A stretch of 44,194 bases of DNA. Source: a virus (taxonomy: Duplodnaviria; Heunggongvirae; Uroviricota; Caudoviricetes). The number at the start of each line of letters is the position of its first letter. Positions within the stretch are counted from its first letter, which is position 1. Below the pieces are notes generated by a model, which was not told the origin of the DNA, searched no databases, and saw only the letters and a program-made list of their open reading frames with translations. The stretch lies in IMG/VR virus record IMGVR_UViG_2541047949_000001; one strand, written 5' to 3'. This document shows, in pieces, positions 5,198 through 6,819 of the stretch. A program made the translations under genes and the position numbers.

Positions 5198-5491
5198 TCA
5201 GGCGGCCTTGATAGTCATATCATCTGAATCAAATATTCCTGATGTATCGATATCGGTAATTCTTATTCCTTCACTACCATCCATTGGAGGCCATCCTTCC
5301 TGACCATTTCCATCATTCCAGTCGAACTCACACACAACACCATATGCATTTAAGTCGCTTGAAATTGCTATAAGCAGAGCATGTTGCGCCAGCATGATTA
5401 ATACAGCATTTAATACAGAGCCGTGTTTATTGAGTCGGTATTCAGAGTCTGACCAGAAATTATTAATCTGGTGAAGTTTTTCCTCTGTCAT
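5198..5491 (-). pseudogene. ea10: ea10, C-terminal 97 codons, separated from its 5' part by the IS insertion
   Basis: ORF begins at an ATG that is the target-site-duplication triplet (CAT on plus strand) abutting the IS left end; no Shine-Dalgarno upstream. Confidence 0.6.
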
Positions 5492-5527
5492 TGAAGTGGT
5501 TTACTGAATTTGGCCACCTGAACAGAG

Positions 5528-5866
5528 GTGATATGCTCACCTCAGAACAACACAGGTGCCATAATGAAAAAAAGAAATTTCAGCGCAGAGTTTAAACGCG
5601 AATCCGCTCAACTGGTCGTTGACCAGAATTACACCGTGGCAGATGCAGCCAGCGCTATGGATGTCGGCCTTTCCACAATGACGCGATGGGTGAAACAATT
5701 ACGTGATGAGCGGCAGGGAAAAACACCAAAAGCCTCCCCTATTACCCCGGAACAAATTGAAATCCGTGAGCTCAGGAAAAAGCTACAACGTATTGAAATG
5801 GAAAATGAAATATTAAAAAAGGCTACCGCGCTCTTGATGTCAGACTCCCTGAACAGTTCTCGATAA
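5528..5866 (+). CDS. IS911-like transposase OrfA (HTH)
   Basis: 112-aa [24 protein letters not shown]...; A-AAA-AAG slippery heptamer at 5815..5821 near its 3' end for the -1 frameshift into orfB. Confidence 0.9.
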
Positions 5867-5892
5867 TCGGGAAACTCAGGGCGCGTTATCCT

Positions 5893-6711
5893 GTGGCCAC
5901 TCTCTGCCATGTGTTCGGGGTCCATCGCAGCAGCTACAAATACTGGAAAAACCGTCCTGAAAAGCCAGACGGCAGACGGGCTGTATTACGCAGCCAGGTA
6001 CTTGAACTGCATGGCATCAGCCACGGCTCTGCCGGAGCAAGAAGCATCGCCACAATGGCAACCCAGAGAGGCTACCAGATGGGGCGCTGGCTTGCTGGCA
6101 GACTCATGAAAGAGCTGGGGCTGGTCAGCTGTCAGCAGCCGACTTACCGGTATAAACGTGGTGGTCATGAACATGTTGCTATCCCTAACTACCTTGAACG
6201 GCAGTTCGCCGTGACCGAGCCAAATCAGGTGTGGTGCGGTGATGTGACCTATATCTGGACGGGTAAGCGCTGGGCGTACCTCGCCGTTGTTCTCGACCTG
6301 TTCGCAAGAAAACCAGTGGGCTGGGCCATGTCGTTCTCGCCGGACAGCAGGCTTACCATGAAAGCACTGGAAATGGCATGGGAAACCCGTGGTAAGCCCG
6401 TCGGGGTGATGTTCCACAGCGATCAAGGCAGTCATTATACGAGCAGGCAGTTCCGGCAGTTACTGTGGAGATACCGGATCAGGCAGAGTATGAGTCGGCG
6501 TGGAAACTGCTGGGATAACAGCCCAATGGAGCGCTTCTTCAGGAGTCTGAAGAACGAATGGGTGCCGGCGACGGGCTATGTAAGCTTCAGCGATGCAGCT
6601 CACGCAATAACGGACTATATCGTTGGATATTACAGCGCACTAAGACCGCACGAATATAATGGTGGGTTACCACCAAACGAATCGGAAAATCGATACTGGA
6701 AAAAACTCTAA
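5893..6711 (+). CDS. IS911-like transposase OrfB (DDE catalytic domain)
   Basis: 272-aa ORF in -1 frame relative to orfA; IS3-family integrase-core-like sequence. Confidence 0.9.
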
Positions 6712-6741
6712 CTCGGTGGCCAGTTTTTGTTGACCACTTCA

Positions 6742-6819
6742 CATTACGTCATGGTCAATTTCAATTTCTATTGATGCTTTCCAGTCGTAATCAATGATGT
6801 ATTTTTTGATGTTTGACAT
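6742..6819 (-). pseudogene. ea10: ea10, N-terminal 26 codons, separated from its 3' part by the IS insertion
   Basis: Reverse strand reads SD(GAGGA)-ATG TCA AAC...GTA ATG then runs into the IS end (TGA); joining with 5198..5491 across the duplicated ATG reconstructs a 122-aa ORF. Confidence 0.6.

Follow-up and report, generated by a model that had tools for sequence, protein, structure and literature searches.

Two small open reading frames (ORFs) lie on the minus strand between ral and cIII of a lambdoid prophage, one on either side of an insertion sequence (IS), and the question raised by this locus is whether they are working genes, a gene that has been remodelled, or the two parts of one gene that has been lost. 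The explanation that best accounts for the evidence, and that is close to certain, is a single recent transposition of the element ISEc52 into codon 26 of ea10 in the pL operon of the prophage, leaving ea10 as a null allele. The DNA examined, referred to below as the window, is the whole stretch of 44,194 nucleotides in IMG/VR record IMGVR_UViG_2541047949_000001. The first bases of the window are the stop codon of a 380-aa integrase gene (1..1143), and in a matching assembly (L010) the prophage adjoins icd (Iso_dh); given this edge and this neighbour, the window would appear to be a prophage that was excised.

Within the window, ral (7002..7202), ea10, cIII (4961..5125) and then Kil and Gam are encoded in that order on the minus strand, and the ral-ea10-cIII arrangement is the same as in the pL operons of lambda and ev207. 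The cIII, kil, gam, bet, exo and int ORFs, all downstream of ea10 on the minus strand, are intact. Two hairpins flank the gene. An intrinsic terminator in the gap between ral and ea10 (6846..6867, minus strand) lies upstream of the insertion, is itself intact and corresponds to lambda tL2a, or the 3' end of the LPR1 sRNA (bioRxiv 10.1101/2024.10.31.621285); a terminator-like hairpin (5156..5173, minus strand) follows just 3' of the ea10 stop codon.

Ea10 belongs to the DUF2528 family (PF10800; the UniProt EA10_ECOL6-type prophage protein). It is an abundant early pL protein, formerly mistaken for Kil (PMC3961180), ea10 was scored as non-essential in a CRISPRi screen of lambda (PMC10695390), and the role of the protein has been described as "not fully understood" (bioRxiv 10.1101/2024.10.31.621285). 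A search for clues to its function yielded no PDB relative at E <= 1, no NCBIfam model and no PADLOC defence model, and PHROG 646, to which it belongs, is annotated as of unknown function. The old GenBank label "ssb" for Ea10 is unsupported.

The two fragments of ea10 and the restored reading frame

An initial annotation of this DNA described, on the minus strand from 6819, a Shine-Dalgarno sequence and ATG followed by 25 codons that end in ATG (6742..6744) and run directly into a TGA of the IS, and this is what the strand reads. The 5' fragment (6739..6819) consists of ATG 6819..6817 plus 25 codons, and its stop, TGA 6741..6739, is formed by the first three bases of the right end of the IS. 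Its 26-aa product in the ORF listing is MSNIKKYIIDYDWKASIEIEIDHDVM, and the final codon, Met26 (ATG 6744..6742), coincides with the right-hand copy of the duplicated target triplet. By sequence comparison, codons 1-26 match lambda and ev207 ea10 exactly. The Shine-Dalgarno sequence read upstream of the gene, GAGGA (6829..6833, minus strand, with a 9 nt spacer to the ATG), is kept in all ea10 alleles compared.

The 3' fragment (5198..5491, minus strand) carries codons 26-122 and the stop codon as a 97-aa ORF, and all 97 codons are intact and the same as wild type. Its start, ATG 5491..5489, is the left copy of the duplicated triplet, so that the ORF does begin, as had been claimed, at the other copy of the same three bases. 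The 20 nt that precede this ATG hold no Shine-Dalgarno sequence, and a TAA in frame at 5503..5501, three codons 5' of it, makes fusion of the 97-codon ORF to any reading inside the IS impossible. In this fragment the conserved domain is also shortened by about 10 residues at its N-terminal end, the DUF2528 profile beginning at residue 16. An uninterrupted 122-aa ORF is absent from the window, where the 26-aa and 97-aa ORFs are set apart by 1253 bp.

Removal in silico of those 1253 bp (5492..6744, the IS and one CAT) joins the two fragments into a 369-nt ORF of 122 codons. The initial annotation had expected an ORF of the size of lambda Ea10, to be judged by its alignment, and the match proved to be full-length, the restored product being identical to lambda Ea10 (J02459) at 122/122 aa. 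The restored ORF is likewise identical to ea10 of phage ev207 at 369/369 nt, with 99.93% identity to ev207 over the 3001 bp around it. The product matches Pfam DUF2528 (PF10800) over residues 16-119 with E = 1.8e-47, and its match to PHROG 646 spans residues 1-122.

The point of insertion is fixed by alleles that have not been interrupted. In ev207 the left flank of the IS (4900..5491) maps to 32562-33153 and the right flank (6742..7300) to 33151-33709; in ev017 the corresponding positions are 35105-35696 and 35694-36252. All four alignments are 100% identical, and in both phages the mapped flanks abut, with exactly the 3 duplicated bases in common. The same empty-site pattern, again at 100% identity, is found in PhiR57_1 and PhiR63_2, and the IS is also missing from this position of ea10 in a metagenome scaffold (L008) that matches the window at 99.96% identity over 10 kb towards ral. 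Because the flanks are contiguous in these relatives, with a single triplet between them, the event is a simple insertion with a 3-bp duplication, and chance is excluded; the duplicated triplet, CAT on the plus strand and ATG on the minus strand, stands in the window at 5489..5491, where it supplies the ATG of the 97-codon ORF, and at 6742..6744. The proposal of an insertional pseudogene with a precisely inferable insertion point is borne out to the base by these empty sites, and every coordinate in the initial annotation was correct.

Judged from its sequence, ea10 in the window is an insertional pseudogene of the Ea10/DUF2528 family, and not a functional member of it. For annotation, the two small ORFs should be joined as a single ea10 pseudogene with a mobile element inside it; they are not separate genes.

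The inserted element and its second copy

The inserted element (5492..6741, plus strand) is an ISEc52/IS911-like insertion sequence of 1250 bp, whose transposase lies antisense to pL transcription. Its ends are imperfect inverted repeats with TG...CA termini, one starting TGAAGTGG and the other end CCACTTCA. The left inverted repeat (IRL; 5492..5527, plus strand) reads TGAAGTGGTTTACTGAATTTGGCCACC..., and the right inverted repeat (IRR; 6706..6741, minus strand) reads TGAAGTGGTCAACAAAAACTGGCCACCGAGTTAGAG, identical at 36/36 positions to an IS911 IRR oligonucleotide (PMC2909936). When the two ends are compared as TGAAGTGGTTTACTG... and TGAAGTGGTCAACAAAAAC..., 25/36 positions match.

Between the repeats lie orfA (5564..5866, plus strand; 100 aa, with an HTH_Tnp_1 domain) and the orfB frame (5821..6711, plus strand, from the frameshift site to the stop codon), which contains an rve/DDE integrase core (rve, E = 1e-31). 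A programmed -1 frameshift motif, A AAA AAG (5815..5821, plus strand), is positioned in the correct phase for a slip that joins orfA to orfB, and the predicted product, OrfAB, is 382 aa in length. With the NCBI model NF033516 for IS3 family transposases, whose cut-off is 160 bits, the fused OrfAB reaches 380.6 bits. The features of the IS3 family are present together: a length of about 1.25 kb with TG...CA inverted repeats, orfA and orfB with the A AAA AAG motif, and a 3-bp target duplication, which is typical of the family.

As to its name, the IS shares 99.8% identity with an element annotated in Salmonella phage SEN22 and 94.9% nucleotide identity with the IS911 copy of Shigella phage Sf6, and the ISfinder criterion for isoforms is at least 95% nucleotide or 98% amino acid identity. 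Copies that are 99.9-100% identical in complete E. coli genomes carry the PGAP label "IS3-like element ISEc52 family transposase". The sequence points to an ISEc52/IS911-type member of the IS3 family, the name ISEc52 resting on these PGAP labels of near-identical copies. By its sequence the element looks intact and potentially active, and not a remnant. IS911 transposes by a copy-out-paste-in route through a circular intermediate (PMC2909936); family membership suggests that the element in the window may do the same.

A second ISEc52 copy (20373..21622) runs in the same direction as the first, matches it at every one of its 1250 bases and is flanked by its own target duplication, TGG, at 20370-20372 and 21623-21625. 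It sits between an ORF for a 126-aa lipoprotein-like protein (19922..20302) and a 117-aa ORF on the minus strand, about 0.9 kb upstream of Nu1 (22507), and its empty site is seen in L009 with 99.8% identity over 2 kb. A separate duplication for each copy, with no difference between the copies in 1250 bp, points to recent transposition. As direct repeats they bracket 6742..20372, a block that includes ral, N, the immunity region, the replication genes, Q and the lysis genes, and recombination between them would delete this block from ral to lysis.

The presence of two identical copies in one window is also what might lead an assembler to place a repeated IS wrongly inside ea10, and the only other record with this junction does little to settle the matter. 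That record (GCA_000461595.1, scaffold KE702513.1), recovered through its 97-aa product, matches window positions 1..15491 at 100% identity and has the IS at the same base; it is very probably the same assembly as the window, and not independent confirmation. Yet an artefact of assembly is extremely unlikely: both junctions are clean, the triplet duplicated at ea10 is single-copy in the empty site, the second IS copy has a different duplication, and misplaced repeats do not produce target duplications. The insertion is real, and it is rare or private. Neither species-representative genomes nor JGI metagenomes contain a 34-nt pattern spanning the junction (0 matches in each), and the exact junction as one contiguous piece was absent from all 5426 complete E. 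coli genomes. It cleanly marks something that happened recently in the lineage of this prophage, and has little import beyond correct annotation.

Consequences for ea10 and the pL operon

In the sequence of events proposed here, an intact ISEc52 would have transposed once, and recently, into codon 26 (Met, ATG) of ea10, with duplication of 3 bp of the target (ATG on the strand of the gene). Translation from the native ea10 start would then stop after 26 residues at the TGA in the tip of the IS, and the remaining 97 codons lie 1.25 kb from the ribosome-binding site of the gene, preceded at the duplicated ATG by no Shine-Dalgarno sequence of their own. The stop at 26 residues, together with 97 codons that lack a Shine-Dalgarno sequence, would make the allele null. 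The insertion is probably neutral, and the loss of ea10 tolerated, because ea10 is dispensable for the growth of lambda.

Damage to the 5' part of ea10 is seen elsewhere. At seven loci (L007, L008, L009, L012, L013, L014 and L016), independent lesions fall in ea10 codons 1-25, the region homologous to window positions 6745..6819. The lesions that occur without an IS are a change of S16 to TAA, of the ATG to AGG and of the ATG to ATT, an A6 to A5 frameshift and a 1-nt deletion, and in each case gene callers report the same 97-aa ORF from Met26. The 97-aa call is not a marker of the IS, in that most of the contigs with it have such 5' point lesions in ea10 instead. The intact 122-aa sequence is found on at least 1000 contigs, versus 125 contigs with the 97-aa call. 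Decay of ea10 in prophages is commonplace.

In a different account of the window, the gene has been remodelled and not killed, and the 97-codon ORF still works, giving a truncated Ea10 from Met26 by read-through from pL or from a promoter in an end of the IS. Its codons are of wild-type sequence, gene callers annotate the product on those 125 contigs, and the other natural alleles (the S16 stop, two losses of the start codon and two frameshifts) lose only the first 25 codons. The contig count, however, is uninformative on function, since a look-up of the exact 97-aa sequence selects 5'-damaged alleles by design. The absence of a Shine-Dalgarno sequence within 20 nt and the in-frame TAA three codons upstream also speak against translation of the ORF, and conserved N-terminal residues are gone from its product, given that DUF2528 extends from residue 16 and PHROG 646 over residues 1-122. 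With respect to a new promoter, neither end of the IS has an outward-facing promoter-like site in a consensus scan. Two candidates were set aside: a hybrid promoter formed from the -35-like TTGACC of IRR and the adjoining flank, and one reading out of IRL into the 97-codon ORF; neither was reported by the scan and neither has a convincing -10. A working 97-codon ORF is on this evidence very unlikely, and the null allele remains the preferred reading.

For the genes that follow ea10, the insertion means that the pL transcript would cross 1.25 kb of untranslated antisense IS. In lambda, RNA polymerase modified by N reads through such regions, and N antitermination is expected to suppress polarity. 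The prophage retains an N gene and a nutL-like site: the ORF for an N-type antiterminator is 90 aa in length with an arginine-rich N-terminus, and upstream of it, at 8384..8430 on the minus strand, is a boxA-like sequence, GCTCTTTAA, followed by a boxB-like hairpin, GGCTGAAAAGCC. With both retained, N-modified polymerase would probably read through the IS after induction and into cIII-kil-gam-bet-exo-int. The N/nut specificity of this prophage is of a non-lambda type, although its ea10, cIII, kil and gam are lambda-identical.

Recurrent insertion in cIII-ea10-ral and comparison with known systems

ISEc52 is found at 11 distinct positions, including that of the window, in about 880 bp of cIII-ea10-ral. 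Sites were sought with chimeric queries that joined an anchor to an IS end, the anchor being on the cIII/ea10 side. The other ten sites, found in ten E. coli genomes and one read-set assembly, are at 5161, 5166, 5333, 5507, 5518, 5521, 5697, 5706, 5872 and 6038 in coordinates of the restored sequence, in which the window site is 5491; the loci concerned (L003-L006, L015, L017, L018 and L020-L022) correspond to about 5161-7291 of the window, and their IS copies are 98.9-100% identical to that of the window. Simple insertions with 3-bp duplications (CAT, TAG, AAT and TTT) account for 4/11 sites, and the other 7/11 are bounded on their other side by deletions that reach sieB, the nin region or tail genes. 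Four sites, the window's and three others, fall inside 33 bp that comprise ea10 codons 15-26. The heptamer TGGTCAA, at 5500..5506 of the restored ea10 5' region (plus strand), is the same as positions 6-12 of IRR, a match that may be due to chance; it lies 9 bp from the insertion point in the window and directly abuts the insertion in L018. IS911 is reported to target sequences that resemble its inverted repeats under some conditions.

The excess of ISEc52 sites over a uniform expectation is roughly ten-fold, a figure made unreliable by clonal copies, by anchored ascertainment and by the unknown size of the tolerated target. As a lead only, the recurrent sites suggest a favoured or well-tolerated landing zone and prophage decay driven by IS elements. 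A larger claim, that cIII-ea10-ral is a preferred landing zone of ISEc52, that IS-bounded deletions there are a recurrent route by which lambdoid prophages are immobilised in E. coli, and that the window is the state before such a deletion, with the immunity, replication and lysis genes enclosed by two identical, directly repeated IS copies, is possible, though doubtful. The pattern could be of modest use for understanding IS-driven decay of prophages, and the claim of a hotspot needs a genome-wide background.

The same pattern might be taken to mean that the insertion in the window was selected, either in that an IS between N and cIII-kil dampens or uncouples a toxic pL operon (through Kil), or in that it seeds IS-bounded deletions that immobilise the prophage. 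Besides the 11 positions in about 880 bp, 7/11 of them bounded by deletions of immunity, replication or tail genes, there is the precedent of IS insertions that knock out kil in laboratory lysogens, such as strain LT1566, which is kil::IS2 (PMC3961180). Against selection, the direction of the deletions is biased by ascertainment, because the searches were anchored on the cIII/ea10 side, and the number of sites would have to be set against the rate in other dispensable prophage DNA. The insertions also occur in both orientations, so that there is no strict orientation bias in the region, and with N and nutL present antitermination should suppress the polarity on which a dampening effect would depend. 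Selection of the insertion is unlikely, and a neutral insertion that inactivated ea10 is the reading carried forward here.

The restored gene shares with lambda ea10 all 122/122 aa, its position between ral/tL2a and cIII, the Shine-Dalgarno sequence and the start codon, and it differs from lambda in that the window gene is interrupted at codon 26 and unable to give a 122-aa protein. With IS911 (IS3 family, IS3 group; Shigella dysenteriae and E. coli), of which ISEc52 is a near relation, the inserted element shares a length of 1250 bp, inverted repeats of 36 bp, an OrfA of 100 aa and an OrfAB of 382 aa by way of A AAA AAG (the lengths given for IS911; PMC2909936), the rve/DDE core and a 3-bp duplication; it differs in nucleotide identity, which is only 94.9% to the Sf6 copy.

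Phages Sf6, with IS911 in ninG (gene 54), and SEN22, with an ISEc52-type element, offer the nearest comparison: as in the window, an element of this kind interrupts a gene that a temperate lambdoid or P22-like phage can do without, and in the Sf6 and SEN22 records the disrupted gene is annotated as such. Both differ from the window in the target gene and in the phage itself, and the element in Sf6 is the 95%-identical IS911 proper. The event in ea10 is of this already known kind, a named IS in a named and dispensable phage gene, and is an instance of ordinary prophage gene decay.
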